64,000 nucleotides of DNA from Pyrinomonadaceae bacterium (GCA_050998795.1 JBPCPU010000079.1:3257-67256); one strand, 5' to 3'. Counted from the stretch's first letter, positions 292 to 54,722 are shown. The notes: generated from the sequence alone by a model not told the origin. Translations and numbers: made by a program.

Positions 292-300
292 TTAAAAAAA

Positions 301-1450: not shown

Positions 1451-2469
1451 AAATGCTGTAAAATTTTTCTTTTTATAATTCTTTGCAAGTTAGGAAATCT
1501 CTCAGAAGTTTCCGCCGCCTGCAAGACAATCTGAAACATCGGTTCAATATATTGTATAAAATATGTTTTACCACGATTAACTGATTGAAAGGAAAACGTG
1601 CCGATGGCTTTCAGGCATCGTTGAATCGTCTGCAAGCGGAATTCTTCTTCAAATTCGCCCGACTCAATCGTTTCCAATCCTAATTTCTCGCGTTCTGACA
1701 AAAAGAAACGCTTTTTTTCTTCGAGCCAAATATATTCGGGAATCTCTAAAACTCTGTCAAGCAAAAGCGAAACCAAATCGTAACTCGCCGTACCGATTCG
1801 CGCGTCTTGCTGGTCAATAATTCGCAAACGGTTTTCTTTGTCAATCATTAAATTCGCCGCGTGAAAATCCCGATGACATAAAACTTTGGCTTTGGCGGAA
1901 AGTTCCCGGACAAGTTCGGCAAATTCTTCGGTTAAAGCGTTATCGTCTGTTGGGGAAAGTTTCGTTTTACGGAAGGTTTCAAAATAATGCGTTTTGAAAA
2001 AATTCAATTCCCAACCGAGTTTTTCCTCGTCAAATTTTAAGCGTGATGCAATTGAATTCAACTCAAAAGCCTTTGAAGTGGCAGCTTGTATTTGTGCAAT
2101 TATGGAAATTGCCTCATTAAGTAATTCTTCCCGCTTTTCTTTATCCGAGTTTAATAATACATCGCGCAAAATCGTATCGCCGAAATCTTCCTGAATAATT
2201 ACGCCGAGATTTTCGTTAAAATCATAAATTCCGGCGACCGGCAAACTGCTGACGAGAAAAAGATTTGTAACATCGAGATAATTTTGTTCTTTCTCAATAA
2301 ATGCTTCGGGATAAACGCAGGCGATGGCAGTCGAATCATTCCAATCCACGCGGAAATATTCTCTAATGGAAGCGTCCGGCGTTAAAGTTACAATTTCGGA
2401 ATTTTCATTATTTAATTCTAAGAATTTTTGCAGCCTTTCGATTGCGCTTTCAGAAAATATTGAACTCAT
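1447..2469 (-). CDS. APH/choline-kinase-family phosphotransferase, possibly an AmgK-like anomeric sugar kinase
   Basis: 340 aa with the catalytic loop [13 protein letters not shown] (HxDxxxxN) and [10 protein letters not shown]. It is paired with a sugar-1-P nucleotidyltransferase, as in AmgK/MurU-type modules. The substrate cannot be determined from sequence alone. Confidence 0.55.
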
Positions 2470-2487
2470 ACCTGTGAAAAAATTTTA

Positions 2488-3564: not shown

Positions 3565-3695
3565 ATCTGATTAGCGTTTGTGAAAGGCGGTCTGCGATTA
3601 AGTTTTCAAAATCGCTGTAAAGATAAAACTTACTTTTTTTAAGTTTCAATTGCAAACTTGCCAAAACGGGTTTTGCCGTTAGAATCTGTTGATAG

Positions 3696-4439
3696 ATGCC
3701 AAATTCAGCCGACGAAAAAACTTATGGACTTTTTGATACGCCGCTCAATAAAAAACTTGTCGTTGAATTTGAAAAAAACGCCGCAAATTTTTTTCTGTTT
3801 CCGCCGATTGAAACTGAGAAAATTATTTTAGATGAAGAAAAAAAGGAGCTTTTGAAAGATTTAACGGCTTTTGATTGGATAATTTTTACTGATGTTTTAA
3901 CGGTTGAATACTTTTTGCAGACATTAGGAGAAAATGAGATTGATTTTTTTGAATTGGACGCGGTGCGCGTCTTCGCAGCAGGAGAAGCCGTCGCTGACAG
4001 ATTGCGTTTCGCGCAGATTCACGCCGATTTAATTCCGAACAGCGTTGAAACGAACATTATTTTTTCAGCAATTACCGAATATATTGGCGAAGAAAATTTG
4101 GATGGTTTGAGTTTTCTTTTGGTTGAAGAAAATTCGTTTGATTTAGAAATTGATAAATTATTAGCAGCAAAAAACGCGGAAATAATCGAATTGCCGGTCT
4201 ACCGGACAAAGATTTCCAACAAACAAGAAATCACAAGGTTAAAAACATTACTTAAAGGCGGCGCAATTGACGAGTTTATTTTCTCGTCGCCGGAAGATTT
4301 GATTGCACTCGAGCATTATTTTCCTGACGAATCAATTTCAGAAGTTTTTCCCGAAATAAAAGTTCTGGCGGTTGACGAAAACATCTTTCAAACCTTGAAG
4401 GAAAATAATTTCAAGCCGCATTATTTCTTTTTGAAATGA
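3696..4439 (+). CDS. Uroporphyrinogen-III synthase-like (HemD/HEM4 domain) protein
   Basis: 247 aa. Paired half-domain motifs are typical of HemD: DWIIFTDVLTVEYF, VRVFAAGEAVADRL and DEFIFSSPEDLIAL. Assigned by pattern recognition only. Confidence 0.5.
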   Translation: MPNSADEKTYGLFDTPLNKKLVVEFEKNAANFFLFPPIETEKIILDEEKKELLKDLTAFDWIIFTDVLTVEYFLQTLGENEIDFFELDAVRVFAAGEAVADRLRFAQIHADLIPNSVETNIIFSAITEYIGEENLDGLSFLLVEENSFDLEIDKLLAAKNAEIIELPVYRTKISNKQEITRLKTLLKGGAIDEFIFSSPEDLIALEHYFPDESISEVFPEIKVLAVDENIFQTLKENNFKPHYFFLK

Positions 4440-9615: not shown

Positions 9616-10677
9616 ATGAATAAAACTTTGCTAAAAAACATTGTCTTTACCTGTCTGTTGGTTAGTTTTGCAGCAGTCGGTGATAATTTTGCCCAAACTC
9701 AATCAGAACCTGTCAAACAGGTAAATTTTCGATATTCTCAAAATCCGAAAACGAAATCTAAAACTGAAAATCAAAAATCTACTGCTAATGCGCCAAAAAT
9801 TAATTCTACATTAAAAAGTGTTGAAGAAAATTTAGCTGATAATGAAACAAAACAAAACACTGATTTTGAAAGTCGTTCAGTCGCCGCTAAAACCCTTGAA
9901 GTTGCCAAACGCGCCAACACGGTTGCGGTTTCGCCCACCGAAGTTTATAAAATCGGAATCGGTGATGTTTTGTTAATCAGTTTGCAAAACGCGCCGGGCA
10001 AAGCCGCAAACTATTTTACGGTTTTAACCGACGGGACAATTGATTATCCATTGGCGGGCGAAATGGTTTCGATTCAAGGTTTAACCGCCGAAGAAGCCGA
10101 AGATTTATTAAAGGAAAAGATAAAACTTTATGAAAACCCGCAAGTTGTCGTAAAAGTGCGCGAATTCGCCAGTCACACTTTTACCGTTCTCGGATTGGTA
10201 GAAAAAGCGGGTGAAAAATTTTTGCAGCGCGAAGCAATGCCGTTGTATGTTATACGCGCCGAAGCAATTGTTCAGCCGCGAGCAACCGCCGCATTTATCA
10301 AACGCGCCAATGCGGAAACCGAAAAAATTAATCTCAATGACCCGAAATCAGATGATATATTGATTTTTCCGGGTGATATTGTCGAATTTAAATCTATTGA
10401 AACCGATACCGTCAACGGTCAAACTCCGCAATTCTACTACATCGGCGGCAATGTCAATTCAGGCGGTAAAAAAGACTTTCATCAGGGAATTACGTTGACG
10501 CAGGCGATTTTGGCTTGCGGCGGTTTGCGAAGATCTAATGTAAAAAAGGTCGTTTTGCGGCGCAAAAATCAAGAAGGTTTGCTTTCGCCTTTGGAATTTG
10601 ATTTGAATGCTATTAAAAACGGCAACCAACCTGACCCGATTTTGCAGGCGGGCGATACGATTGAGATTGGGAATTAG
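9616..10677 (+). CDS. Polysaccharide export protein (Wza-like, Poly_export + SLBB domains), orphan copy
   Basis: 353 aa with a signal peptide. YKIGIGDVLLISL...DGTIDYPLAGEMVSIQGLT is the Poly_export motif, and the C-terminal GDTIEI is SLBB-like. Confidence 0.7.
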   Translation: MNKTLLKNIVFTCLLVSFAAVGDNFAQTQSEPVKQVNFRYSQNPKTKSKTENQKSTANAPKINSTLKSVEENLADNETKQNTDFESRSVAAKTLEVAKRANTVAVSPTEVYKIGIGDVLLISLQNAPGKAANYFTVLTDGTIDYPLAGEMVSIQGLTAEEAEDLLKEKIKLYENPQVVVKVREFASHTFTVLGLVEKAGEKFLQREAMPLYVIRAEAIVQPRATAAFIKRANAETEKINLNDPKSDDILIFPGDIVEFKSIETDTVNGQTPQFYYIGGNVNSGGKKDFHQGITLTQAILACGGLRRSNVKKVVLRRKNQEGLLSPLEFDLNAIKNGNQPDPILQAGDTIEIGN

Positions 10678-27467: not shown

Positions 27468-28475
27468 ATGGAACAACGAACAAAGGTTTTAGTTACGGGT
27501 GCGGGCGGTTTTATCGGCAGTCATTTGGTCGGATATTTGAAAGATAAAGGTTTTTGGGTGCGCGGAGTTGATTTAAAATATCCCGAATTTAGTGAAACGG
27601 ACGCGGATGAATTTGAAATTTTGGATTTGCGGCGTTGGGACAATTGTTTGCAGGCGACGCGAAATGTCGAAGAAGTCTACGCGCTTGCCGCCGATATGGG
27701 CGGAATGGGTTTTATTTCCGCCAACCACGCGAAAATCCTGTATAACAACTCACTGATAAATCTGCACACGCTCGAAGCCGCGAAAACAAACGGCATCAAA
27801 CGATACTTATATACCAGCTCGGCTTGCATTTATCCCGAATACTTACAGGAAGAAACGAATGTTCAGCCGTTAAAAGAAGAAGATGCATATCCGGCGCAGC
27901 CGCAGGACGCTTACGGTTGGGAAAAACTTGTTTCGGAAATTCTCTGTATGCACTACCGAAACGATTACGGCATCGAAACGCGAACGGTTCGTTTTCACAA
28001 TATTTTTGGTGAAAAAGGAAGTTGGGAAGGCGGACGCGAAAAAGCGCCGGCGGCGGTGTGCCGCAAAATCGCCGAAGCAAAATTAAACGGAAAAACCGAA
28101 ATCGAAATTTGGGGCGACGGCGAACAAACGCGCTCATTTTGTTATATTGACGATTGCGTTGAAGGAATTCATCGCCTGATGCGTTCGGATTTTCACGAAC
28201 CGCTCAATCTCGGACAAGACCGAATGGTAACAATCAACGGGCTTGCCGACATTATCGCGGAAGTTGCCGGAGTTAAAATCAACAAAAAACATATTGACGG
28301 ACCGCAAGGTGTGCGCGGCAGAAATTCCGACAACACAAAACTGCGCGAAGTTCTCGGCTGGGAGCCGGAAATCTCGTTGGAAGAAGGTTTGGCGGTAACT
28401 TATAAATGGATTGAAGAACAAGTTCGACAGAAACTCGCAGCCGACAAAGAAGGAAGTTTAGTTGCTCAAGTCTGA
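27468..28475 (+). CDS. GDP-mannose 3,5-epimerase-like NAD-dependent epimerase
   Basis: 335 aa. ALAADMGGMGFISANHAKILYNN, SSACIYPE, PQDAYGWEKL, GGREKAPAAVCRK, WGDGEQTRSF and GPQGVRGRNSDN closely track plant GME sequences as I recall them. Confidence 0.75.
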   Translation: MEQRTKVLVTGAGGFIGSHLVGYLKDKGFWVRGVDLKYPEFSETDADEFEILDLRRWDNCLQATRNVEEVYALAADMGGMGFISANHAKILYNNSLINLHTLEAAKTNGIKRYLYTSSACIYPEYLQEETNVQPLKEEDAYPAQPQDAYGWEKLVSEILCMHYRNDYGIETRTVRFHNIFGEKGSWEGGREKAPAAVCRKIAEAKLNGKTEIEIWGDGEQTRSFCYIDDCVEGIHRLMRSDFHEPLNLGQDRMVTINGLADIIAEVAGVKINKKHIDGPQGVRGRNSDNTKLREVLGWEPEISLEEGLAVTYKWIEEQVRQKLAADKEGSLVAQV

Positions 28476-29835
28476 TTTGATAATGTTTGTTTTGACTCAT
28501 AAAGATTTACAAAATAAAGATTATGTCGCCTGGGCAAAGTTTCTGCGCGAATCCGACGGTTGGAGTTTGGAGCAAATCAAAGAATACGAATTATCAGAAA
28601 TCAAGCGGGTCAGCAAACACGCTTACGAAAATACGAAAGGTTATCGGGAGTTATTTGGAAAAGTCGGCGCACAGCCCGCAGATATTGATTCGATTGAAAC
28701 ATTTCGCAAAATTCCGTTTTTAACAAAAGAAATGATTCGGGATAATCTGGAAAATTTTTCCTGTGATTATCCGAACCGCGAATATATAACGACCGGCGGA
28801 AGCACCGGAATACCGACGGGAATGTATCGGGACCCGATTTCTTTTGCTAAAGAGTTGGCTTCAAAAGCGCATCAATATCACCGTATCGGCTGGCGCGAAG
28901 GCGACCGGCAAATGGTTTTTCGCGGTTTGCAGATAGAGAGTTCCGATGGTATGCAGTTTGAACCGAAATTTAATGAACTTCGCTGCTCGACATACCAATT
29001 TATTCCGTCGCAAATGGAGATTTATCGCCGGAAAGCATTTGATTATAAACCTGAATGGATACGCTGTTATCCTTCTTCGGGATATGTTTTCGCCGATTAT
29101 TTAAAAGATTCGGGAAAGTCTTTTCCGAAAATAAAAGGCTTGCTTTGTTCGTCGGAAAATCTTTACGATTTCCAAAAACAGCTTTTTCGGGAAGTCTTCG
29201 GCGACGAGGCGCGGATTTTTGTCCATTACGGACATTATGAAATGTCCGCTTTGGCAGGTTTTTGCGAATATACGGACGATTATCACGTCTTACCGCAATA
29301 CGGTTTTGTCGAATTGTTGGATAAAAACGGTAATCAAGTTACAAAAGAAGGAGAAATCGGTGAGATTGTCGCAACTTCATTTATAATGACGGCGACACCT
29401 TTTATTCGTTTTAAGACGGAAGATTTAGCCGTTTTCAAAAGTTGGGGTTGTGCGGAATGCGGCAGACCTTATCAAATTTGGGAACGTATCGAAGGCAGAC
29501 TGCAAGAATTGATTCAAACCGAAACAGGACGTTTAATTTCGACTTCGATGCTCAATATGCACGACGATTCTTACGATTTTTTGAAACAATTTCAGTTTCA
29601 CCAAAAGGAAAGCGGCAAAGTTACATTTCGATTTATACCGAAAGAAAATTGCGCGGAAAATTTTCTGGAAAGCATTAAAGCTAAAATTCAATACAAATTA
29701 GGCAGCGATATAAAACTTGAAATTGAATCGGTTAAGGAAATTCCGCTGACAAAACGCGGAAAACACCGGTTGTTAATTCAAGAATTAAACTTAAAACAAA
29801 ATCATCCGGCTTTGGAAAAACCCCTGAGTTTATGA
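28462..29835 (+). CDS. Adenylate-forming enzyme, phenylacetate-CoA ligase / CapK / F390-synthetase family
   Basis: 457 aa. A TTG start follows a GAAGGAAG Shine-Dalgarno sequence (ATG 28483 is an alternative). TTGGSTGIPTGMY is the P-loop-like AMP motif of PaaK/CapK-type ligases. Confidence 0.65.
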   Translation: MLKSDLIMFVLTHKDLQNKDYVAWAKFLRESDGWSLEQIKEYELSEIKRVSKHAYENTKGYRELFGKVGAQPADIDSIETFRKIPFLTKEMIRDNLENFSCDYPNREYITTGGSTGIPTGMYRDPISFAKELASKAHQYHRIGWREGDRQMVFRGLQIESSDGMQFEPKFNELRCSTYQFIPSQMEIYRRKAFDYKPEWIRCYPSSGYVFADYLKDSGKSFPKIKGLLCSSENLYDFQKQLFREVFGDEARIFVHYGHYEMSALAGFCEYTDDYHVLPQYGFVELLDKNGNQVTKEGEIGEIVATSFIMTATPFIRFKTEDLAVFKSWGCAECGRPYQIWERIEGRLQELIQTETGRLISTSMLNMHDDSYDFLKQFQFHQKESGKVTFRFIPKENCAENFLESIKAKIQYKLGSDIKLEIESVKEIPLTKRGKHRLLIQELNLKQNHPALEKPLSL

Positions 29836-31310
29836 CTGTAAAAGTGGCAGTTGCCCAAACAGAAACCGTTTATTCGGAAAACGCGCCATATCATCCGTCG
29901 GAAAAATATCCCGAATATCCGTTTGGTGAAAACTTGTCTTCCGTTTCAAATCCGGTTTATGGCGCGGTTCGTCAACTTTTTGTCGAACTCGAATACGACA
30001 TTGAAAATTTTGGAACACCAAATTGGAATCCGTTAAAAAATCTGATTTCCGGCGGAATGACGGTTGTTTTGAAACCGAATTTTGTCAGAAGCTGGCATTC
30101 CGAACGAAAAAATCCATATTCAATGATTACGCATCCGTCGGTTTTGCGTGTCATCGCCGATTATTGTTTAATCGCGCTGGAAGGAAAAGGGAAGATAATT
30201 ATCGCCGATGCTCCGCAATATGACGGAAACTGGGCGGAATTGCTCGAGTTGACAAAACTCGATGAGGTTGCTGATTTTTTCAAATTAAATTCCGACGTGG
30301 ATTTTGATATACGGGATTTGCGTCATTACTGGTCGCGCAAAAGACATTTTCCCTCAATGATTGAGCCTTTAAAAGGCGATATGCAGGGAAATTTGACAAT
30401 AAATTTGGGAAAGGAAAGCGCGTTAAGTTCAATTTCAAATCCCGAAAAACTTTACGGAGCTGTTTATCACCGGCAGGAAACTGTTGAAAATCATACGAAC
30501 GAACGACAAGTTTATGAACTTTCGCGGACGGTGTTGGAAGCCGATGTAGTAATTTCCGTTCCGAAATTGAAAACTCATAAAAAGGTCGGAGTAACAATGA
30601 ACATTAAAGGTTTGGTTGGAATTTGCACCAATAAAAATTTGATTGTTCATTATATGCTCGGATTGCCGGGCGAAGGCGGCGACCAATTTCCGCCAAATCA
30701 TTTTACGCCGATGGAAGAGGGTTTGATAAGAACCGAACGCTGGATGTATGACACATTTTTAGCCAAACAAAGTGTTCCACTCGAATACGTTCATCGTTCG
30801 ATTTACTGGCTTCACGGGAAATTCTTAAAACCTTTGGGTTTGGGTGTTGATAAAAAGAAAAGATTATTAGATGTCGGAAATTGGTATGGAAACGATTCGG
30901 CGTGGCGAATGTCGGTTGACTTGTTAAAGTTATTTCTTTTTTCGGATAAAGCAGGAAAACTTCACAAAACACAACAAAGGCGCGTGTTTTCAATTATTGA
31001 CGGAATAATCGGCGGCGAAAATAAAGGTCCGCTCGAACCTGATCCGGTGGAGTCGAAAATTTTAGTGGCTAGCGAAAATTTTTTAGCGGCTGATATTGTC
31101 GGAACACGCTTGATGGGATTCGACCCGTTAAAAGTTAAAATTTTTACATATTTAATGAATGAAGACGGTTGGGATTTTGGTGTAAAAAGTTTTTCGGATA
31201 TTTATGTTGAAACATCCAATCCCGATTGGAAAAATTGTTTGGAAAATAAGACGAATAAATTTTTAGAATATAAGCCATATCCGGGTTGGGTCGGGCATTT
31301 AGAGATATAA
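29832..31310 (+). CDS. DUF362 domain protein
   Basis: 492 aa. The ATGA start/stop overlaps the ligase gene. VVLKPNFV near the N-terminus and IIADAP are characteristic of DUF362. Confidence 0.55.
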   Translation: MTVKVAVAQTETVYSENAPYHPSEKYPEYPFGENLSSVSNPVYGAVRQLFVELEYDIENFGTPNWNPLKNLISGGMTVVLKPNFVRSWHSERKNPYSMITHPSVLRVIADYCLIALEGKGKIIIADAPQYDGNWAELLELTKLDEVADFFKLNSDVDFDIRDLRHYWSRKRHFPSMIEPLKGDMQGNLTINLGKESALSSISNPEKLYGAVYHRQETVENHTNERQVYELSRTVLEADVVISVPKLKTHKKVGVTMNIKGLVGICTNKNLIVHYMLGLPGEGGDQFPPNHFTPMEEGLIRTERWMYDTFLAKQSVPLEYVHRSIYWLHGKFLKPLGLGVDKKKRLLDVGNWYGNDSAWRMSVDLLKLFLFSDKAGKLHKTQQRRVFSIIDGIIGGENKGPLEPDPVESKILVASENFLAADIVGTRLMGFDPLKVKIFTYLMNEDGWDFGVKSFSDIYVETSNPDWKNCLENKTNKFLEYKPYPGWVGHLEI

Positions 31311-37368: not shown

Positions 37369-38937
37369 CTAATCCGGCTCATTTTTTTCCCATATTTCTA
37401 TCTCATACTCAACCTTATTATTGACGTCACTAAAATTATTCAACTTTTCAACCCGATGGTAATTTGTATGAACAAAGTCAGCCAACGGTGGTAAATGGAA
37501 GTCCGGCGATTGATTTGAATTATATGTTTCCCAAATCCCGTTCCAAATGATATAACGCGGAGGATTTTGTTTAAGACCTTTAATAACGTCATCTACCTGC
37601 TCAACCGAGGTGTAATTATTAGGACGAATTAACGGCAGAGGCGTCGGATTTTTTAATTGAAAAATCATATATAAACTCGGATGATGAGCTTCATAAAGAT
37701 AATCATTCGGCTGAGTATGGTCGGCGACCCATTTGTATCGGGATAAACTCTCCGCTGAAAGAGAAACGGCTGAACCGGAAGGAGTATCTAAGGAATAGAC
37801 CGGAATCGTTTGTCGTTGAACGATATAAGATAAACCAAGCAGACCTGAAATAATCAAAAAAGACAGTATAATTTTAGGCAAATGAAAAAGATATTGAATA
37901 ATCCAAACTAACGAAATTAAACCCGGCAGAGAAATTTGGTAAAAACGTGCAGAAGACGGCGACGAAAAAACACCGATGGCTAAAAACAGACCTGCCAAAT
38001 TTATAAAAATTAACTGTAATTTTTTTTCATCGGAAATTGTTTGACGCTTAAACCATAAAACAACGAAAAAAAGTAAATAAACCCAGGGAATCAAAAAATA
38101 GTTGAATAATACAGGCACGGCTTGTCTCAAATAAAGCGATAAAGGTGTTTCCCGGAAGCCCGGAACATCTCTTAAAAAAGCGCGGGGGTTGTTCCAAACA
38201 TCGGCGGGATAATGTTTGACCGGAAAAACAAACGTCGCAAAATAGAAGGTTTCAAATCCGGCTGTGATTATGAAATAAATCGAGATAAAACCGATTATCA
38301 AAGCAAAAGGTAAAACGACCCAAATAATTGAACGGATAAATGCCGATAAATTTTGCTTTGTATAAAATTTTTCAACTGCCAGAAAAAAAATTATTGCCGT
38401 CATCCCGACCAGCCCGCGCGGTTGCGTAAAGCAGGAAGCGAGTCCGCAAAATGTGCCTGCCAGAAAAAGTCTCGACGAAGTTCTTTGAGAAAATAAAACT
38501 GCAACGGCAAGCAAAACGGCGAGAACGCTAAAAAAGCGATGACTTCCATCAATCCCTAAAGGTCTGAAGCCGATTATTATAAAAATGGAAACCGGTAAAT
38601 AAACCGCCCATCCGCTCAGGAGTTGGCGGGAGAAAAATAAGCCGACGGCTGATAAACTGAGAAGCAGACAAAAAATAGCCGCGTTCAATATCCATAATTT
38701 GACACCGAATAATTTGAAGAAAACGAGATAAAAAAATTCCGTTCCCGGAAACGTGAAAAGGAAGAAATCCCGGAATGCAACTTCGCCTTGAAACAATCGC
38801 CAGGCGTTTGACAGATGAACTGCGTGGTCACCTTCAAATAAAATCGGAGTGGCGGGAAATCGGAAAAGCTGGAGATATAAAAAAAAAGCTGTCAACGATA
38901 AAAATAATATCGTTGAACGATAAGGTGAATTGAACAT
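37369..38937 (-). CDS. Polytopic membrane protein, possibly a GT-C-type glycosyltransferase
   Basis: 522 aa with many TM helices and an acidic first-loop motif (FEGDHAVHL). It is the only minus-strand gene in the EPS locus. The family assignment is tentative. Confidence 0.35.
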   Translation of the reverse strand: MFNSPYRSTILFLSLTAFFLYLQLFRFPATPILFEGDHAVHLSNAWRLFQGEVAFRDFFLFTFPGTEFFYLVFFKLFGVKLWILNAAIFCLLLSLSAVGLFFSRQLLSGWAVYLPVSIFIIIGFRPLGIDGSHRFFSVLAVLLAVAVLFSQRTSSRLFLAGTFCGLASCFTQPRGLVGMTAIIFFLAVEKFYTKQNLSAFIRSIIWVVLPFALIIGFISIYFIITAGFETFYFATFVFPVKHYPADVWNNPRAFLRDVPGFRETPLSLYLRQAVPVLFNYFLIPWVYLLFFVVLWFKRQTISDEKKLQLIFINLAGLFLAIGVFSSPSSARFYQISLPGLISLVWIIQYLFHLPKIILSFLIISGLLGLSYIVQRQTIPVYSLDTPSGSAVSLSAESLSRYKWVADHTQPNDYLYEAHHPSLYMIFQLKNPTPLPLIRPNNYTSVEQVDDVIKGLKQNPPRYIIWNGIWETYNSNQSPDFHLPPLADFVHTNYHRVEKLNNFSDVNNKVEYEIEIWEKNEPD

Positions 38938-39165: not shown

Positions 39166-40701
39166 ATGATGAGGTTAGAAACAAAAATTCCAAAATTTCA
39201 GAGCGATAGTAATAAAGCATTGTTAATTCCTATTTTAGCCATTGCTTTGTTTATTTTCATTGGCGGATTTTTGATGCTGGTGCTGCTCGACGACCAATCA
39301 AATCCGTTTAAGGACGCATATTTATTACCCTGGATTATTATGTTGGGGATTGTTATCGCCGTCCCGAACTTTTATTTAATTTACAAAGGTCGTTTTCATT
39401 TATTCAATCCGATAGTTTTTGCCGCGTGGTCATATTTTGTTCCGGCATTTTTCTTCGGCGGACTGATTTTAGCAAGCGGTCTTTCGCAGCCGTTCTTTTT
39501 GATTTATGTTGAAGACGAAAGATATAATCTGCCGTTAACGCTGGTTTATGTGGCACTCGGGTATGGCGGTTTAGCACTCGGTTTTCTGCTTCCTTACGGA
39601 AAAAAAATCGGGGATAAAATCAATGATCGGTTACCGGACTGGCATTGGAAACCGGAAAATGTATTTCTGCCCGGCATTTTATTACTGGCAATCGGCGTCG
39701 GCAACAGCATTGTTGCTTTCGGCGCCGGCATTTTGGGTTATCAAAAGGTAGCCGAAGTCGGCGCATACGACGGTTTGATTTTTTTATTAACGCTCTTTTG
39801 GTTGGAAGCCGGTTTTTTGTTGTGGTTGAGTATTTTTAAGGTTAAGAAGTTAAATTTTAATCATATTTTAATAATCGGTCTTTTGTTGACGACGTCTTTG
39901 ACAAAATCCGTCTTTCAGGGCAATCGGGGAAGTTTGTTTGGACTTTTTATTATGGTGGCTTGCGCGTTTGTGTTTTCCGGCAGGCAAATACAAGTAAAAC
40001 ATCAGATATATGGAGCTTTCCTATTAGTTTTGGCGCTAGCGGCGGGAATGATTTACGGAACGACCTTCCGCAACGTCAAACAAACCGAAGAGCGGGTAAG
40101 TTTTGAAGAATACAGCGAAGTTATCGGCAATACATTCGATAAACTGGGTGACCAGGATTTAGTTGATAATTTGGGGCAGGGCGTTTCGGCTTTGACCGAA
40201 CGGATTGAAGGCGTCAGTTCGCTGGCAGTGGTAGTTTCCAATTACGAAAAATTAGAACCATATGAAGAAAGCTATGGGATAAAAGATAATATTATCAACG
40301 ACAGTTTTTACTTTTTTATTCCGAGACCGCTGTGGCAAAATAAACCGGTTGGTTCCGAACCGCGAAAATATGCCGATTTATATTTTAATTTCAGTGAAAA
40401 TTCGTTTGCCGTCACGCCGATGGGTGACCTTTTACGAAATTTCGGACCGGTTGGCATACCGCTCGGAATGATTTTACTGGGATTTATTTTACGCATTATT
40501 TACGCTTCACTGGTTGAAAACAAAGATTGTTCAATCTGGCGTGTAACGCTGTTTTATATGCTGTTAACGAGTGTTTCATACGAAGGATTCTACGGAACGA
40601 TTATTCCGTATTTAATCAAATACGGCTTGATTGCGGTTATCGGAATTATATTTATCTGGTTTTTTCAGATTAGAATTAATCAACCGCGATTGAAAGGTTA
40701 G
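39166..40701 (+). CDS. Wzy-like oligosaccharide repeat-unit polymerase (polytopic membrane protein)
   Basis: 511 aa with more than 10 TM helices and a large loop in the C-terminal half. Its position is next to the Wzx and GT genes. Assigned by architecture and context only. Confidence 0.45.
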   Translation: MMRLETKIPKFQSDSNKALLIPILAIALFIFIGGFLMLVLLDDQSNPFKDAYLLPWIIMLGIVIAVPNFYLIYKGRFHLFNPIVFAAWSYFVPAFFFGGLILASGLSQPFFLIYVEDERYNLPLTLVYVALGYGGLALGFLLPYGKKIGDKINDRLPDWHWKPENVFLPGILLLAIGVGNSIVAFGAGILGYQKVAEVGAYDGLIFLLTLFWLEAGFLLWLSIFKVKKLNFNHILIIGLLLTTSLTKSVFQGNRGSLFGLFIMVACAFVFSGRQIQVKHQIYGAFLLVLALAAGMIYGTTFRNVKQTEERVSFEEYSEVIGNTFDKLGDQDLVDNLGQGVSALTERIEGVSSLAVVVSNYEKLEPYEESYGIKDNIINDSFYFFIPRPLWQNKPVGSEPRKYADLYFNFSENSFAVTPMGDLLRNFGPVGIPLGMILLGFILRIIYASLVENKDCSIWRVTLFYMLLTSVSYEGFYGTIIPYLIKYGLIAVIGIIFIWFFQIRINQPRLKG

Positions 40702-48722: not shown

Positions 48723-48743
48723 ATAGCTTTGCAGGAAAGGGAA

Positions 48744-49988
48744 ATGGATAAAGGCGAAAAGCGCAAAAATAAAATCCGAAATCGCCTTTGGGTCGTCACG
48801 GAACTTTATTATCCCGAAAATAATCAGACGGGTTATTATATGACGGGAATTGCCGAAGGGCTGACGGCAAAATATGACGTTAAAGTAATTTGCGGGCAGC
48901 CGAATTACGCGGCACGCGGCACCCGCGCACCGAAAAAGGATTTTCACAAAGGCGTGGAAATTTTTCGGGTCCGGAGTACGACTCTGAATAAGGATGTGTT
49001 GGCTTTTCGGCTTTTGAATATGCTTACGCAGGGAGCGTCAATTTTTGTTAAATCTTTGTTAAAGTTCAACAAATATGACAGCGTTTTAGTGGTTTCCGCT
49101 CCGCCGACATTACCGTTCGTGACGGCTTTAGCGGCAAAACTTCGCCGCGCCGAATACACTCTGGTTATCCAGGATAAATATCCCGAAACATTGATTGCGG
49201 TCGGCAAATTAAAAGCCGATTCGATTTTTATAAAACTGTTGAACCGGCTTAATAATTGGCTTTATGACGGAGCCAAAAAAATCATTGTGGTCGGGCGCGA
49301 TATGCGCGAACTGGTTAATTCTCAATTAAACCACCATTCGACACGGCAAACGCCGATTGATGTAATTCAAAATTGGGCTTCATTAGAGGAAGTTGAACCG
49401 ACTTCGCGTCGTGAAAACCGGCTTTTACAGGATTTGGGACTTTTGGATAAATTCGTCTTCCTCTATGCGGGAAATATGGGACATCCGCAGGACATCGAAA
49501 GCATTGTCGAATGTGCAAAAAAATTAAAAGACGACGGGCGATTTCATTTTTTATTTATCGGTTCGGGAGTTAAAAGAAAATGGCTCGAACGGGAAGTGAG
49601 AGATAATAAACTGACCAATGTAACAGTTCTCGAACCGCGCCCGCGCACCGACCAGAAGTTATTTTTAAATGCCTGTGACGTCGGTTTAGTTCCGCTCGTC
49701 AAAAAAATGCGCGGCGTGGCAATGCCGAGCCGAACATATAATATATTGGCGGCAGGAAAGCCGGTTTTGGCTTTAACGGAAAATGATTCGGAAGTGGCGC
49801 AAGTTATTGAAGATGACCGGGTTGGCTGGTATGTTCCGCCGGGTGAGCCGGAAAAACTGCTGCAAATGATTTATAAAATTTACGAAGAGCGCAGTGAAAT
49901 CCCCGAAATGGAAATAAGGGCGAGAAATTCGGCGCTCCAAAAACACTCTTTAGAAGTTGCCGTCGGAAAATACCGGAAATCAATTTAG
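48744..49988 (+). CDS. Glycosyltransferase family 4, WbuB/WbjE-like
   Basis: RLWVVTELYYPENNQTGYYM is the N-terminus typical of WbuB-type GTs, followed by GNMGHPQD. The position after a 2-epimerase matches fnl/wbj clusters. ATG 48744 is preferred over TTG 48729. Confidence 0.7.
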   Translation: MDKGEKRKNKIRNRLWVVTELYYPENNQTGYYMTGIAEGLTAKYDVKVICGQPNYAARGTRAPKKDFHKGVEIFRVRSTTLNKDVLAFRLLNMLTQGASIFVKSLLKFNKYDSVLVVSAPPTLPFVTALAAKLRRAEYTLVIQDKYPETLIAVGKLKADSIFIKLLNRLNNWLYDGAKKIIVVGRDMRELVNSQLNHHSTRQTPIDVIQNWASLEEVEPTSRRENRLLQDLGLLDKFVFLYAGNMGHPQDIESIVECAKKLKDDGRFHFLFIGSGVKRKWLEREVRDNKLTNVTVLEPRPRTDQKLFLNACDVGLVPLVKKMRGVAMPSRTYNILAAGKPVLALTENDSEVAQVIEDDRVGWYVPPGEPEKLLQMIYKIYEERSEIPEMEIRARNSALQKHSLEVAVGKYRKSI

Positions 49989-50031: not shown

Positions 50032-51057
50032 ATGAGAGTCGTTGTAACAGGTGCCGGCGGATTTATCGGAAGAGAAATTGTTCAGGAATTAGACAAGAAT
50101 AATTTCACGATTTTCCAAGTTGGCAGAACCGAGCCGGCACGGCAAGCTGATTTTGAAAATAAAAACTCACAAAATAATTTTTTTGCGGCGGATATTATCA
50201 ACAACAAAAACTTTGCCGACTTGGAAGAGTTAAAAAATATTGATGCGGTTGTGCATTCTGCCGGGCTTGCCCATCAGTTTGGAAATACGGGAAAAGAAGA
50301 GTTTGATTCGGTCAATGTTTTAGGAACGAAAAATATTGTTGAATTGGCGGTAAAACTACAAGCCAAACAGTTTATTCTGATTAGTTCAACGGCAATCTAT
50401 GGAATAAAAAAATCGGATAAGAATCAAAATATCCAAGTTGACGGGTTAATTATTGACGAAAACACAGTCTGTCAACCGGAAACTTTATACGCTGAAAGTA
50501 AATTGGCAGCCGAAAATGTGTGTATTAAAATTTGCAAACAAAATTCACTTCCATTGACCATCTTGCGGCTGGCTCCGGTAATCGGCGAGGGAAATGTCGG
50601 AAATACGGCGCGTCTGGTCAGTGCGATAGACAAGGGAAGATTTATTTGGATTGGAAAAGGCAAAAATCTAAAAACATTGATTTACAAAAAAGATGTGGCG
50701 CGGGCGGTAGTCGAAGTTTTGCTGAATAAGAGAAATGAAACCGAGATTTTCAATGTGGCGGCAAAGCCGATTACGATGAAGGAATTCGTTGGAGAAATTG
50801 AAAAGCAATTAAACAAAAGCGTGCCGAAATTCCATATTCCGTTCGGCATTTTACAAAAAATCTTTTTAATAAATGCAAAAGTTTTGGGAATTAAAAAGAT
50901 AAAAAAAATATCGGATACCATTGAAAAATGGCTGTCGGATGATATTTATGCGGCGCGGAAAATCAAACAAAATTATAATTTCGAGCCGCACACTTCAATC
51001 GCGGAGGCGATTGAAAAACAGGTTAAATGGTATCTCGGCAAAAAAAACAAGAATTAG
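50032..51057 (+). CDS. NAD-dependent NDP-sugar epimerase/dehydratase (WbjF/WbpV-like)
   Basis: 341 aa with MRVVVTGAGGFIGREI, SSTAIYG and YAESKLAAE (YxxxK). Confidence 0.75.
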   Translation: MRVVVTGAGGFIGREIVQELDKNNFTIFQVGRTEPARQADFENKNSQNNFFAADIINNKNFADLEELKNIDAVVHSAGLAHQFGNTGKEEFDSVNVLGTKNIVELAVKLQAKQFILISSTAIYGIKKSDKNQNIQVDGLIIDENTVCQPETLYAESKLAAENVCIKICKQNSLPLTILRLAPVIGEGNVGNTARLVSAIDKGRFIWIGKGKNLKTLIYKKDVARAVVEVLLNKRNETEIFNVAAKPITMKEFVGEIEKQLNKSVPKFHIPFGILQKIFLINAKVLGIKKIKKISDTIEKWLSDDIYAARKIKQNYNFEPHTSIAEAIEKQVKWYLGKKNKN

Positions 51058-51073: not shown

Positions 51074-52012
51074 GTGCCTGAAATTATAGTATTTTTAATA
51101 GTTTTTATCGCTTCTTATCTCGGCGTGGAAATTTTTCGGCGGTGGAGTTTGAGACGGGAAATTTTGGATTTACCCAACGAGAGAAGTTCGCATACGACAC
51201 CGACGCCGCGCGGCGGCGGATTGGTAATAGTTTTAATAAGTTTAATTTTTTATCTGATATATACAAATCTTGTTTCACATAATTTTTCGTGGAGTTACCT
51301 GTTGGGAGCAAGTTTGATCGCTTCGGTGAGCTGGCTGGACGACATTTTTGATATTTCTTTTGTCTGGCGAATTTTGGTGCATTCCGCCGCCGCACTTCTC
51401 GTAATTCTGACATTAGGATTTTTCGGTGAAATTTATCTTCCATTCGGGCAAAATACCGAACCCGGAATCTTCGGGGCAATACTGACTTTTTTTTGGATAG
51501 TTTGGCTGACCAACGCCTACAATTTTATGGACGGCATTGACGGTATTGCCGGAATGCAGGCGGTTACAGCCGGAATCGGCTGGCTGATAATCGGGGAAAT
51601 TTTAGGATTTAACGACATCGGATTTTACGGCGGCGTGATCGCATTTTCCAGTTTCGGTTTTTTAATTCATAATTGGCAACCGGCAAAAATTTTTATGGGC
51701 GACATCGGGAGTGCATTTTTGGGATACAGTTTTGCCGTTTTGCCGTTATTGGCGAAAAATAAAAGCACTGATTATTATCCGTTATTGCCGGTAATCAGTG
51801 TCGGATTGGTATTTCTTTTTGTCTTTGATACTCTTTTAACTTTTTTTCGAAGGGTTTTAAAAAAAGAAAAGATTTGGCAGGCACACCGCCGTCATATTTA
51901 CCAACAACTTGTCATAAAAGGTTTTTCCCATCGTTCCGTAACACTTTTTTATAGTCTTATTTCATTTATTTTAGTAGGAGCAATCGTATTTTGGTTAAAA
52001 ATCAGAAACTGA
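51074..52012 (+). CDS. Initiating polyprenyl-phosphate sugar-1-phosphate transferase (WecA/WbpL, MraY-like GT4 family)
   Basis: 312 aa with a GTG start and about 10 TM helices. It has SHTTPTPRGGG, NAYNFMDGIDGIAG and FMGDIGSAFLG. Confidence 0.85.
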   Translation: MPEIIVFLIVFIASYLGVEIFRRWSLRREILDLPNERSSHTTPTPRGGGLVIVLISLIFYLIYTNLVSHNFSWSYLLGASLIASVSWLDDIFDISFVWRILVHSAAALLVILTLGFFGEIYLPFGQNTEPGIFGAILTFFWIVWLTNAYNFMDGIDGIAGMQAVTAGIGWLIIGEILGFNDIGFYGGVIAFSSFGFLIHNWQPAKIFMGDIGSAFLGYSFAVLPLLAKNKSTDYYPLLPVISVGLVFLFVFDTLLTFFRRVLKKEKIWQAHRRHIYQQLVIKGFSHRSVTLFYSLISFILVGAIVFWLKIRN

Positions 52013-52263
52013 TTTGATTCTTGAATTCAAAATTAATCGGTTTGTATTTCGTCGTTTTGCGGCAGCGGAAGAGAGCGGGAATGACGGTATTCCGTCAACA
52101 TAACTTTAATTCTATAAAACAACTCTTGAATAAATTTATAATTCGTGGCATACTTTTTCAAAGTCAAAGGACGAAGTTAGTCTGTTTGTCTATTTTGCTT
52201 ACAAAAAACTTGATATTTTGCCAAAATTAAACTAAACTGTTTTGATAAATCGGAGGAGAAAAT

Positions 52264-52758
52264 ATGAATAACCCGCAAATGCCAATCGCCCGCAAAGAAG
52301 GATTAGTAATTCAGGAAATGCCGGACGAAGTATTGGTCTATGATATGGAAACCAACCAGGCGCACTGTTTGAATCAAACGGCGGCATCTGTCTGGAAGTC
52401 GTGTGACGGTGTAAATTCCGTGACGGATATCACCAGGAAACTGGAGAAAGAGTTTAAAACAACAATACCGGAAGATTTGGTCTGGCTGGCGATTGACCAG
52501 CTTTCCAAAGACAAATTATTGGAAAAGGAAATCGAAACCAAAATAAGCGGTCTTTCGCGCCGCGAAGTTATCAAACGAATCGGCTTTGCTTCGATGGTTG
52601 CTTTGCCGGTGGTGGCGATGCTCAGTTTTCCGCAATCGGCTCTCGCGGTTGCTTGTCCGCCATCCCAGCAGGGAACACAGGATGGATGTAATCCGGGACA
52701 ACTGTGCTGTGGTGGAAATTGTGTAGCGGCTCCCAGCGGTACTTGTCCTCCAGCGTAG
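52264..52758 (+). CDS. PqqD-like (RRE) domain protein fused to a twin-arginine-like signal/anchor and a 36-aa six-Cys C-terminal peptide
   Basis: 164 aa with a GGAGGAG Shine-Dalgarno sequence. Residues about 8-95 are PqqD-like (LVIQEMPDEVLVYDMETNQAHCLNQTAASVWKSCDGVNSVTDITRKL...DLVWLAIDQLSKDKLL). Next comes SRREVIKRIGFASMVALPVVAMLSFPQSALA. The tail is VACPPSQQGTQDGCNPGQLCCGGNCVAAPSGTCPPA. Confidence 0.75.
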   Translation: MNNPQMPIARKEGLVIQEMPDEVLVYDMETNQAHCLNQTAASVWKSCDGVNSVTDITRKLEKEFKTTIPEDLVWLAIDQLSKDKLLEKEIETKISGLSRREVIKRIGFASMVALPVVAMLSFPQSALAVACPPSQQGTQDGCNPGQLCCGGNCVAAPSGTCPPA

Positions 52759-52780
52759 TTTTAATCAACTTGTTTGAATC

Positions 52781-52832
52781 AAAACTTGAATACATTTTCA
52801 TCAAAAAAAATGTATTCAAGTTTTTGTTTTTT
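52781..52832 (+). terminator. Strong rho-independent terminator after the PqqD-peptide gene
   Basis: The stem is aaaacttgaatacatttt / aaaatgtattcaagtttt, about 18 bp and perfect. The loop is short and a T-rich tract follows (ttgtttttt). Confidence 0.8.
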
Positions 52833-52882
52833 GGGTCAGGAATAGAAGTTTGATAAAGATTTATAAATTTTTAACCGGGTAA

Positions 52883-53716
52883 ATGACAGATTCTGAAAAA
52901 AATATCAGAGAAGAAATAGACGTTATAAAGTGGCGGGATAGATTTGCCTTTGAGTGTGGCGGAATAAAAGTCGGTGTTAAAATAAATGATTTAAATGTTA
53001 AGTCGAAATTAAAAAAGGTTTTACCCGTTGCCAGTCGGGAAATTGATTTTGGCGAGGCTGATGAAATTTTAATGCTCGTGGTCGGGGAGAACAGACGGGT
53101 CAACGGATTATATTATAAATATGAACTGATACATCAATTCGATGATTGCAATGACGCGCTTTTGAATTTAATCGGCGATAAAATACTAATGTTTTTGGCG
53201 TTAATATCCCTGCCTCGGATATTATACCTGCACGCCGGCGCCGTTAGTTGGAATAATACGGGAATTATTCTGCCGGGCGGTTCGTTCAGCGGCAAAACGA
53301 CGCTGGTTAAAGAATTTATCAAAGCCGGCGCCGATTATATTACCGACGATTTGACGTTGTTAGATATTCGAGGGAATATACTGCCATTCCCGCGCGCTCT
53401 GGCAATCAGGACAAAAAGAGGCAGAGAAATTAAAACGGCTGATTGTTTCGGGGCGAAAACGGTTGCGGAGAATGTCAAACTCAAACTGATTCTTTTCACC
53501 GAGTTTGAAGAGAATGCGCGTTGGAAGCCGGAAATTTTACCGCCCGGACAAGCAGTTCTGAGGTTGATGAACAATTTCTATTATAAACCGTCGGTCAGAG
53601 AAGCGCCGATGCAAATCCTCAGGACTTTAGCCGGAATTACGGACGGAATAAAAATATATGCGGGCAAAAGAGGCAACGCTAAAAGTGTGATAAATTGGGT
53701 GGTGAAAAACTTTTAA
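52883..53716 (+). CDS. HPr kinase-like P-loop kinase (HprK-related kinase)
   Basis: 277 aa. LHAGAVSWNNTGIILPGGSFSGKTTLVKEFIKAGADYITDDLTLLD matches the HprK C-terminal domain pattern (H-x-G-x-V...G-x-S-G-x-GK-S/T...DD). Confidence 0.7.
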   Translation: MTDSEKNIREEIDVIKWRDRFAFECGGIKVGVKINDLNVKSKLKKVLPVASREIDFGEADEILMLVVGENRRVNGLYYKYELIHQFDDCNDALLNLIGDKILMFLALISLPRILYLHAGAVSWNNTGIILPGGSFSGKTTLVKEFIKAGADYITDDLTLLDIRGNILPFPRALAIRTKRGREIKTADCFGAKTVAENVKLKLILFTEFEENARWKPEILPPGQAVLRLMNNFYYKPSVREAPMQILRTLAGITDGIKIYAGKRGNAKSVINWVVKNF

Positions 53717-53732
53717 TTTCCGGCAGGAATAT

Positions 53733-54722
53733 TTGATGAACCAGGCGGACGATAATTTTTTTCAAAATACTGCAGCCAACCGTGTCGGCACAGTCCGGGC
53801 GTCGGCTGAAATTTATCAAATGCTCATGTTTAAGGTATATGAGAAAAAGCTCCAAAATATATGGAAGCATTTTGAAGACAGTCAAATCGAGCCGATTTTG
53901 ATAAAAGGCTGGTCTGCCGCGATTAATTATCCGCAGCCTTTCCTGCGTCAACTGGGAGATTTTGATTTGGCGGTAAATCCCAATTGTTTCGACAAAGCAG
54001 AGAAATTACAGAAGCATTCGGACTTGCGCGAAGTTGATTTACATAAAGGATTAAGGCATCTGGATACGGTCGGTTGGGATGATTTGGCGAAGAATTCGGT
54101 TTTGGTAAAATGCGGCGAAGTTAGTATTAGAGTTTTAAGACCGGAAGATCATTTACGTGTCTTGTGCGTGCATTGGTTGAACGACGGCGGTAGAGAAAAG
54201 GAAAAATTGTGGGATATTTTTTATGCGGTCAAAAGCCGCCCCGCCGATTTTGATTGGGAGAGGTGTTTGGGAGTTGTCAGCGAAAGGCGAAAAAAATGGA
54301 TAATTTACGCCATCGGGCTGACTCACAGGTATTTCGGACTGGAGATTGAAGATAATCCGGTTGCTCAAGCGGCAAAAAAATTGCCTCGATGGTTAATAAA
54401 AGCAGTCGAAAATGAATGGAATAATCCGGTTGAATTTAAATATCTGCAAACATGTCTGCGGAACAGAAAAGAATTTTTCAAACAATTACGAAAAAGATTT
54501 CCTCCCAATCCAATCCAGGCAACCATTGAGATGGAAGGTGATCTGGATAGCCATAAAAGAATTTTTTATCAAATTGGCGACTTTTTCTTGAGATTTCTGC
54601 CTTCAGTGCGAAGAATCTTAAAAGTTGCCGCTAATAATGGAAAATGGAAAATGGAAAATGAAAACAATGGAAAATGGATAGTATTTTATCTTTCACATTA
54701 TCCATTATCCATTATCCGTTGA
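53733..54722 (+). CDS. Uncharacterised nucleotidyltransferase family protein (PF14907-like)
   Basis: 329 aa. ILIKGWSAAINYPQPFLRQLGDFDLAVNP matches the K-G...Y...R...GD-x-D-L pattern of that family. The last roughly 30 residues (NNGKWKMENENNGKWIVFYLSHYPLSIIR) are read from the repeat element at 54633-54746. Confidence 0.6.
   Translation: MMNQADDNFFQNTAANRVGTVRASAEIYQMLMFKVYEKKLQNIWKHFEDSQIEPILIKGWSAAINYPQPFLRQLGDFDLAVNPNCFDKAEKLQKHSDLREVDLHKGLRHLDTVGWDDLAKNSVLVKCGEVSIRVLRPEDHLRVLCVHWLNDGGREKEKLWDIFYAVKSRPADFDWERCLGVVSERRKKWIIYAIGLTHRYFGLEIEDNPVAQAAKKLPRWLIKAVENEWNNPVEFKYLQTCLRNRKEFFKQLRKRFPPNPIQATIEMEGDLDSHKRIFYQIGDFFLRFLPSVRRILKVAANNGKWKMENENNGKWIVFYLSHYPLSIIR

Follow-up and report, generated by a model that had tools for sequence, protein, structure and literature searches.

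The closest described systems to the genes analysed here are the clusters for Linear Polyphosphorylated Peptides (LPP) of the Bacillota (Popov et al. 2026, Nat Commun, May 2026; PMC13381572). The genes in question are three co-directional genes at positions 52264-54722 of a stretch of 64,000 nucleotides from Pyrinomonadaceae bacterium (GCA_050998795.1 JBPCPU010000079.1:3257-67256; the whole stretch is called the window below), encoding a PqqD-like protein of 164 aa with a Cys-rich tail, an HprK-like kinase and a nucleotidyltransferase (NTase) of the family PF14907. LPP clusters contain a discrete gene for a PqqD-type recognition element of ribosomally synthesized peptides that are modified post-translationally (RiPP recognition element, RRE), together with an HprK-like kinase, an NTP_transf_5 protein, a signal peptidase I of the SipW type and an MsbA-like pump; cyclase and B2 protease are absent, and the clusters are often situated inside capsular polysaccharide loci (PMC13381572). 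Per cluster there are one to three precursors, 35-200 aa long, whose N-terminus is conserved (YxxP... motif) and whose C-termini are hypervariable. Ser3 of the core is polyphosphorylated by the kinase LppK, and the leader is cleaved off at a site of the signal-peptidase-I type by LppS, which needs the RRE for this reaction (PMC13381572). The LPP kinases are mostly missed by the Pfam Hpr_kinase_C model, the biological role of the peptides is unknown, and the authors call them restricted to Bacillota (PMC13381572).

An HprK-like kinase paired with an 'NTP transferase' is also present in the clusters of paeninodin-type lasso peptides, where the kinase phosphorylates a C-terminal Ser (PMC8498205). 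For pseudomycoidin, the protein PsmN was required for the addition of one or two hexoses to the phosphoserine, and its DxD mutant was inactive (PMC6993621). That paper describes PsmN as an uncharacterised NTP transferase of the lasso-cluster kind; we take it to be a PF14907 protein. Among the MNIO-modified RiPPs, bufferin precursors use a general Sec signal peptide (PMC11626156). A reading of the window made earlier from the nucleotide sequence (the sequence-only reading) had regarded the trio as uncharacterised and the combination of an RRE with an HprK-like kinase as recorded only computationally. The latter is outdated by the experimental characterisation of the LPP family in 2026 (PMC13381572), and the enzyme trio now belongs to a known, LPP-like kind.

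All three genes are situated on the + strand: the PqqD-tail gene at 52264-52758 (164 aa), the gene of the HprK/PEPCK-fold P-loop kinase at 52883-53716 (277 aa) and the gene of the PF14907 (NTP_transf_5) nucleotidyltransferase-fold protein at 53733-54722 (329 aa), with intergenic gaps of 125 and 17 bp. As the sequence-only reading had noticed, they follow an initiating transferase, the WecA-like GT4 gene at 51074-52012; their 3' neighbours are TsaB- and RimI-like genes. With moderate confidence, the trio is interpreted as an LPP-like RiPP tailoring pathway in which the precursor carries its RRE in cis and housekeeping export and signal peptidase replace the dedicated enzymes. The observations behind this interpretation are the architecture of the 164-aa protein, its pattern of conservation, the intact catalytic motifs of both enzymes and the synteny of the module.

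Alignments and position-specific counts for 151 distinct sequences revealed a tripartite organization of the 164-aa protein, with an RRE (residues 1-90), a signal-like segment (91-128) and a Cys-rich core (129-164). The RRE (52264-52533, + strand) was assigned to the PqqD family by PF05402 (33.8 bits, gathering cut-off 23.4), AlphaFold and Foldseek. Its AlphaFold model, with a predicted local distance difference test (pLDDT) value of about 85, consists of strands 14-18, 23-27 and 32-36 and helices 38-46, 53-64 and 70-82. The best Foldseek matches were lasso B1 proteins crystallised with leader peptides (TbiB1, 5v1u; target-normalised template modelling score 0.77, root-mean-square deviation 2.4 Å), and RRE domains of cyanobactin heterocyclases, PqqD and another B1 protein came next. 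The ratio of non-synonymous to synonymous substitution rates (dN/dS) of the RRE was about 0.055. A total of 1,518 relatives of the 164-aa protein were found; nearly all among the matches listed were full-length, with 159-197 aa. The RRE is N-terminally fused to signal and tail in the window and in every full-length relative examined, and the Cys-rich C-terminal peptide pointed out by the sequence-only reading is conserved as an architecture.

The second part (52534-52647, + strand) comprises a linker and an internal segment that was annotated as a twin-arginine translocation (Tat)-type signal or leader from the conservation profile and a Tat hidden Markov model (HMM). In the window it contains S98-R99-R100-E-V-I-K104 and a hydrophobic stretch with P115 and P123, followed by the signal-peptidase-I-type site A126-L-A128. 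No indels occur in this segment across the family, and its consensus could be written as G-x-[ST]-R-R-x-V-[IL]-K-[KR]-[IV]-G-[LF]-A-x-x-[VI]-A-L-P-[VI]-[VI]-A-x-L-x-x-P-x-x-A-[LM]-A. Both arginines were found in 151 of the 151 distinct sequences, preceded by S or T in 147 and followed by V, I/L and K/R; the prolines at +16 and +24 are invariant, and A-[LM]-A stands at +27 to +29, with A or G at position -1 of the site in 149 sequences. The segment thus corresponds to the Tat motif pattern ([ST]-R-R-x-hydrophobic-hydrophobic-[KR], a moderately hydrophobic stretch and A-x-A), also in the distant clade, and a Tat function is likely. Its dN/dS (about 0.05) equals that of the RRE. Export of the 164-aa protein and its cleavage at this site are predictions from the sequence.

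The third part (52648-52758, + strand, stop codon included) is, from the tail statistics, a hypervariable core of 36 aa with six Cys residues. In the window it reads VACPPSQQGTQDGCNPGQLCCGGNCVAAPSGTCPPA, with the spacing C131-x10-C142-x5-C148C149-x3-C153-x7-C161, and S134 and T138 are candidate phospho-acceptors. Among 351 distinct relatives with a predicted cleavage site, 347 cores have an even number of Cys (six in 206, eight in 123), the cores have a median length of 36 aa, and the first Cys is located at core position 3-6 in 334. The pattern C..C..CC..C..C is present in 161 of the 351, many of them with the spacing C-x6-C-x5-CC-x3-C-x4-C, and apart from the Cys the core is hypervariable across the family. 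Ser or Thr directly precedes the first Cys in 259 of 348 relatives (74% vs a background of 21%) and occurs somewhere in core positions 1-6 in 348 of 351. Among the nearest relatives of the window, dN was 0.33-0.57 for the tail vs 0.02-0.10 for the remaining protein, i.e. 4-20 times higher; as dS was saturated (>1), only these relative dN values are informative and positive selection is not assessable, and dN/dS exceeded 1 in none of the pairs compared. The AlphaFold model of the tail has low to medium pLDDT (57-74), with a beta-hairpin at residues 146-155 as its only structure.

The even Cys counts downstream of a probable export signal point to an extracytoplasmic disulfide-bonded peptide, and the hypervariability of the cores suggests that they serve in antagonism or in interactions at surfaces. 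Knottins have been described mainly from eukaryotes; omega-conotoxin MVIIA, for example, has the spacing C-x6-C-x6-CC-x3-C-x4-C. The cores resemble such peptides by spacing alone, in the six-Cys C-C-CC-C-C framework and a size of about 25-40 aa. The sequence-only reading had missed that the protein has an internal Tat-like signal with an A-x-A site and that the cores are knottin-like with an even number of Cys; these features shift the picture from a tail peptide to a product that would be exported and cleaved.

PDB sequence searches with the three proteins were uninformative (PqqD protein, best E about 0.8 and nothing useful; kinase, no match; NTase, one marginal match), and a fold search was therefore needed. 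For the kinase, AlphaFold gave a confident model (pLDDT 89.4) that resembles HprK/P and PEPCK structures. The kinase motifs H117-A-G119, Walker A P131-G-G-S-F-S-G-K-T-T-L141 and D155 correspond to a signature, H-A-G ... P-G-x-S-x-x-G-K-T-T-L ... D, that is invariant in 37 homologs, so that the prediction of a P-loop kinase of the HPr-kinase fold was borne out. The kinase is the fastest-evolving of the three proteins, with a mean identity to the window copy of 32% vs 59% for the PqqD protein and 48% for the NTase (window vs loci L004-L083). The NTase, likewise recognised correctly at the outset, scored 63.2 bits with PF14907 (cut-off 31.2) and belongs to the same Pfam family as LppN, whose domain is named NTP_transf_5 in the supplement of the LPP paper (PMC13381572). 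It carries a complete polymerase-beta-type nucleotidyltransferase motif, K58-G59 ... R72 ... D76-F-D78 ... D102, in which K-G, R, DxD and D102 are invariant in 96 of 96 sequences and H104 follows in 95.

The sequence-only reading had named missing synteny in other genomes as a point on which its proposal could fail; the synteny holds. In 80 species genomes out of 246 matching genomes, all of Pyrinomonadaceae or other Blastocatellia, 72 of the 80 loci have the kinase gene, and 71 the NTase gene, at a distance of at most 5 kb from the PqqD-tail gene. The order in most Pyrinomonadaceae is kinase, PqqD, NTase, and in the subclade of the window PqqD, kinase, NTase. The genes for WecA, GT1, TsaB, RimI, DUF465 and SSB are likewise syntenic in Pyrinomonadaceae, and since the whole region is kept, adjacency to the polysaccharide locus alone proves no functional link. 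As no contig is on record for an exact look-up of the window kinase and its 100%-identical match P0121, the context was taken from the loci of relatives.

The module recurs in unrelated surroundings. The loci L084, L085 and L089, with a kinase 30% identical to that of the window, have a context of sensor kinases and pentapeptide-repeat proteins and the gene order kinase, three PqqD-RR-signal-Cys-tail genes in tandem whose tails are unrelated, a fusion of MauE/DoxX and thioredoxin (CPYC), and PF14907; near the module of L084 there is a single WecG-family glycosyltransferase gene. An unbiased metagenome sample of 80 loci was anchored on this distant kinase clade (about 30% identity to the window kinase), and 55 of the loci had enough downstream sequence. 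A PqqD-type open reading frame (ORF) is the immediate next gene after the kinase in 40 of these 55, the RR-signal plus Cys-tail architecture was seen in 41 of the 56 PqqD-type ORFs (most others are cut at contig ends), and the NTase is also present in 11 of 15 long loci. The loci in which the kinase is followed by a PqqD-tail gene showed no recurrent extra gene family that could be a dedicated protease or transporter; a family of 424-aa proteins does recur, mainly in the metagenome loci that lack the PqqD gene. A second clade of PqqD-tail proteins yielded 3,983 matches, with the PqqD-tail gene again placed between kinase and NTase, downstream of WecA-like, Polysacc_synt_2 and Wzy_C genes. On these gene orders, the trio is a conserved module independent of its genomic context.

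Two of the lineages have further genes within or next to the module. In L084 (13763-14686), and also in L089, the gene between the PqqD-tail paralogs and the PF14907 gene encodes a fusion of a MauE/DoxX-type membrane domain with a thioredoxin-like domain that has CPYC, which suggests a dedicated disulfide-forming partner in this lineage. In L169 and L170, the WecA-like GT4, Polysacc_synt_2 and Wzy_C genes occupy positions 1-4255 upstream of the module. The Wzy_C family includes O-antigen ligases and PglL-type O-oligosaccharyltransferases, and a periplasmic O-glycosylation of the exported Ser/Thr-rich peptide is a possibility for these loci, judging from the genes present.

A stem-loop with T-run at 52781-52834 (+ strand), terminator- or attenuator-like, separates the PqqD-tail gene from the kinase gene. 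Its stem is an inverted repeat of 18 perfect pairs and its loop is A-rich and 8 nt long (hairpin 52781-52824); the T-run follows, and the 130-nt intergenic stretch after the PqqD-tail gene has a minimum free energy of -27.4 kcal/mol (z -3.0). Among 79 related loci, 61 have a strong hairpin 3' of this gene, vs 12 of 81 control regions; these hairpins are kept in position, not in sequence. A stem-loop directly 3' of a gene is typical for structural-peptide genes. Together with the tandem paralogs of L084 and a solitary copy in L171, it gives the PqqD-tail gene a precursor-like character.

The likeness to LPP clusters consists of the PqqD-family RRE, an HprK-like kinase that stays under the Pfam cut-off here and in most LPP clusters, NTP_transf_5, the lack of a cyclase and B2 protease, the polysaccharide neighbourhood, a conserved N-terminal part with a signal-peptidase-I-type site after the leader and the hypervariable C-terminus; the LPP acceptor Ser3 lies at the start of the core, where the present family is rich in Ser/Thr. 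The systems also carry clear differences. The RRE is fused to the precursor here, while it is a discrete gene in LPP clusters, and the cores are knottin-like with six or eight Cys behind a probable twin-arginine-type leader, in Acidobacteriota instead of Bacillota. The LPP leader motif YxxPxVLxHQxIxFETxxS is not in the profile of the 151 sequences, which has [VI]-A-L-P-[VI]-[VI] with no aromatic residue and no HQ..FET. No SipW-type signal peptidase I (TIGR02228) was found in the scanned neighbourhood of the window (ORFs under 200 aa not scanned individually) or in the annotated contexts of relatives, and no ABC transporter such as the MsbA-like exporter (TIGR02203) adjoins the module in the same neighbourhoods. 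Polyphosphorylation of a core Ser has been demonstrated in LPP, whereas for the present family the corresponding observation is the Ser/Thr enrichment at the start of the core.

With paeninodin and pseudomycoidin the trio shares the HprK-like kinase, the NTP transferase, a probable ribosomal peptide substrate and a B1-type RRE, and the DxD essential in PsmN is kept. The acceptor in these lasso peptides is the C-terminal Ser, while the C-termini in this family are variable and usually not Ser, and without a cyclase, B2 protease or ABC exporter the product cannot be a lasso. Bufferins and oxazolins are similar in their Cys-rich precursors, general export signal, housekeeping signal peptidase and lack of a dedicated protease or pump, and the DoxX-type oxidoreductase of the bufferin cluster is comparable to the MauE/DoxX-thioredoxin gene of L084. 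Bufferins differ in that an MNIO enzyme and a DUF2063 partner make thiooxazoles, the signal is N-terminal and of Sec type, and the RRE-like partner is separate. The HPr-rel-A (TIGR04352, TIGR04353) and SynChlorMet (ScmC/ScmD) systems also pair an HprK-related P-loop protein with a PqqD-family protein; their PqqD profiles, however, are short (74 and 84 positions) and without signal-tail fusion, and SynChlorMet needs radical-SAM enzymes, none of which was seen among the scanned proteins or in the annotated neighbourhoods of relatives. The link to HPr-rel-A drawn by the sequence-only reading was not sustained: the kinase scored 40.2 bits with TIGR04352 HprK_rel_A, its best NCBIfam model (cut-off 200), and the 164-aa protein 18.8 bits with TIGR04353 (cut-off 35). 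For the latter protein ScmD (TIGR04248) was the best-scoring NCBIfam model, far below its curated cut-off, and membership of either system was rejected.

The pathway proposed here would start from a precursor composed of an N-terminal B1-type RRE, a conserved leader that doubles as a twin-arginine-type signal, and the hypervariable 36-aa six-Cys core. By analogy to LppK, PadeK and PsmK, the HprK-fold kinase would be recruited in the cytoplasm via the RRE and leader and would transfer one phosphate, or possibly several, to a Ser or Thr near the N-terminal end of the core. For the window, Ser134 or Thr138 is proposed, because the usual [ST]-Cys position is Ala. The PF14907 enzyme could then, as PsmN may do, extend the phosphate with a sugar or a nucleotide-derived group, for which nucleoside diphosphate (NDP)-sugars would plausibly come from the neighbouring polysaccharide locus. 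The phosphorylation, possibly with a second transfer onto the peptide, that the sequence-only reading had considered is in this way supported by analogy as a proposal. The modified precursor would be exported by the housekeeping Tat (or Sec) machinery while the RRE stays in the cytoplasm, signal peptidase I would cut after A-L-A128, and the released peptide of about 36 aa would oxidise outside the cytoplasm to a three-disulfide knottin-like fold, as Cys parity and spacing suggest. General export and signal peptidase would thereby stand in for the SipW-type peptidase and MsbA-type pump of the Bacillota LPP clusters.

A number of findings weigh against this pathway, in which we infer all of the modification and export steps and, from an observed architecture, the role of the 164-aa protein as precursor. 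Confidence is held down mainly by loci that have the enzymes and lack the proposed substrate: in 9 of the 55 metagenome loci and in L087, kinase, NTase, TsaB and RimI follow each other without a PqqD-tail gene nearby, so that the precursor gene may be elsewhere in the genome or the enzyme pair may serve another substrate. The signal motif starts at residue 98, after a folded domain of 97 residues, which is unusual for Tat or Sec targeting. The Tat assignment itself is unproven because the family consensus reached 14.5 bits with TIGR01409 TAT_signal_seq, below the cut-off of 16.7, and the window's own segment was barely detected, with a single 11.7-bit match to a related Tat model. The very strong conservation of this segment would also be consistent with a membrane anchor that has a function of its own. 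In the AlphaFold model, leader and RRE made no confident contact, and for this reason the cis binding of the leader is put forward as a proposal. The window core has Ala at the position of the [ST]-Cys motif common in relatives, and the kinase stays below every curated cut-off (PF07475, 17.1 vs 33.3; TIGR04355, 25.1 vs 200; TIGR04352 as given above). The NTase step is the weakest link, since LppN was inactive in the heterologous LPP experiment (PMC13381572).

Several of these points would suit a different role of the 164-aa protein, namely that of an uncleaved single-pass membrane adaptor or sensor, with the RRE inside and a disulfide-rich ectodomain outside, which tethers or regulates enzymes acting on another substrate (protein, lipid carrier or polysaccharide). 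The kinase-NTase loci without a PqqD gene, an internal signal with a Tat score under the cut-off, and a hydrophobic segment conserved to the same degree as the RRE, which is not usual in a signal peptide that is discarded, all speak in its favour, as does the occurrence of PF14907 proteins next to non-peptide pathways, e.g. phosphonate clusters. We nevertheless consider it unlikely. A-[LM]-A is placed at a fixed distance after a helix-breaking Pro, with A/G at -1 in 149/151; a hypervariable tail is atypical for a receptor domain that has to keep its ligand; the tails of the tandem paralogs are unrelated; the stem-loop after the gene is typical of structural-peptide genes; and every characterised RRE-associated kinase of this type acts on peptides. 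An exported precursor could also be modified otherwise than proposed, by side-chain nucleotidylylation (AMP or UMP) through the PF14907 enzyme or by a kinase that acts on the leader or RRE and gates export. The complete nucleotidyltransferase motif would fit the former, LppN, to which no reaction is assigned, was inactive in the heterologous host, the authors of the pseudomycoidin study left open whether PsmN itself is the glycosyl donor enzyme (PMC6993621), and the window core has no Ser/Thr at the position favoured in relatives. The sole experimental data on such enzyme pairs, however, are Ser phosphorylation followed by addition onto the phosphate, and Ser/Thr is enriched at the start of the core, not in the leader, which makes other chemistry improbable.

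The position of the trio directly 3' of the WecA-like initiating transferase raises the question whether kinase and NTase are accessory enzymes or regulators of the polysaccharide pathway (HprK-style regulation, sugar activation), next to an unrelated PqqD protein. Polysaccharide genes adjoin the module also in L002, L169 and L170 and surround the Bacillota LPP clusters. Nevertheless, in Pyrinomonadaceae the whole region is syntenic, housekeeping genes included; the L084 module lies amid sensor-kinase and pentapeptide-repeat genes with one WecG-family glycosyltransferase; the polysaccharide block is absent from L087; and in 40/55 distant loci a PqqD-tail gene directly adjoins that of the kinase. 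This explanation is very unlikely. The link to an exopolysaccharide locus suggested by the sequence-only reading stands in part: the adjacency in Pyrinomonadaceae belongs to a family-wide synteny that extends to TsaB, RimI and SSB, while LPP clusters and the second acidobacterial clade are also found beside polysaccharide genes. That the trio is instead the decayed remnant of a paeninodin-type lasso cluster which has lost cyclase and protease might be supposed from an RRE structurally nearest to lasso B1 and from the kinase and NTase as typical lasso tailoring genes. With thousands of intact copies under purifying selection in two clades, invariant catalytic residues and no cyclase or B2 protease in any locus examined, its probability is close to nil and it was rejected.

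Returning to the LPP-like pathway with a cis-RRE precursor, what is new in comparison with known systems is the architecture of the precursor, which unites a cis-RRE, a Tat-type leader and a knottin-like core, the loss of genes dedicated to processing and export, the scale and the phylum. No prior description of an RRE fused to its precursor or of an internal Tat-type leader was found in the literature searched, in which subscription journals were poorly covered, so that this absence is not proof. If the pathway is confirmed, LPP chemistry, described for about 80 Bacilli genomes, would extend to thousands of sequences of soil Acidobacteriota, which are abundant and for the most part uncultured, and the 164-aa protein would be the first RRE fused in cis to its own precursor, as far as the literature searched shows. 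Such a fusion would bear on the evolution of leader recognition, and one gene serving as substrate and adaptor would simplify engineering. It would also be a RiPP with an internal Tat-type signal as leader and without a dedicated protease or pump, and the family would represent an extensive natural collection of small bacterial peptides, knottin-like and with six or eight Cys. The placement in polysaccharide loci of two phyla offers a testable handle on the role of the PF14907 enzyme, i.e. the use of locally made NDP-sugars. Possible, yet doubtful, is the further-reaching proposal of a distinct and very large RiPP-like class, mainly in Acidobacteriota with relatives in other lineages, in which RRE, Tat leader and core form one polypeptide, an HprK-type kinase and a PF14907 transferase add a phospho-(glyco) group in the cytoplasm, and Tat and signal peptidase release a disulfide-knotted 'bacterial knottin'. 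In this proposal the RRE may in addition act as a cis proofreading chaperone that holds the signal peptide until modification is complete.

Some loci deviate from the trio. The arrangement without PqqD gene (kinase, PF14907, TsaB, RimI, DUF465) is located at 7783-9508 in L087 and is also seen in L103, L107, L108, L110, L116, L124 and L150; a PqqD-tail gene is absent over distances of up to 8 kb. The metagenome loci of this arrangement have three uncharacterised genes upstream, whose products are a TPR protein (about 650 aa), a secreted protein rich in Gly/Ala (about 215 aa) and a protein that ends in ...QRENCTTSPCPIFGS.SLDSFS (about 425 aa); the upstream genes of L087 differ from these, and genes of like size and order are situated 5' of the full trio in L169/L170. 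In L171, an orphan PqqD-tail gene (10001-10513) lies amid PIN/HicB-type toxin-antitoxin genes with no kinase or NTase gene within 10 kb, from which it follows that precursor-like copies can be encoded apart from the enzymes. The high-GC contig L088 (205-4590) encodes a kinase with a C-terminal PqqD-like extension, a PF14907 protein, two small discrete PqqD-like ORFs (1337-1699 and 3264-3521) and, on the opposite strand at 2491-3192, a 233-aa protein with a Tat-type signal and a long N-terminal region; it may be the system in a 'split' form.

Upstream of the PqqD-tail gene, a consensus scan gave a promoter-like site, TTGATA-17-TAAACT, at 52210-52238 (+ strand); it is weak evidence, as the number of such sites in the region is not above the expectation from shuffling. 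A PADLOC search of the region gave no match, and a known defence system was not supported for the trio. The polysaccharide locus in front of it (23781-52012) comprises Wza-, Wzc- and Wzx-like genes, glycosyltransferases, epimerases and the WecA-like GT4. Twenty proteins were scanned, namely those of 19 ORFs of at least 200 aa and the WecA-like GT4; GT1 (48729-49988) and an epimerase (50032-51057) were assigned only via their counterparts in relatives. In agreement with the sequence-only reading, asparagine-synthase-like cyclase, transglutaminase-like (B2 protease), radical-SAM and YcaO families had no match among these 20 proteins, and lasso cyclase and B2 protease were also not seen in the annotated neighbourhoods of relatives. 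Three large ORFs of the locus, at 28462-29835 (+), 37369-38937 (-) and 39166-40701 (+), gave no Pfam match at E <= 1e-5. A DUF362 protein is encoded within the locus at 29832-31310 (+), and the ORF at 37369-38937 is the sole large minus-strand gene of the otherwise co-directional polysaccharide block.

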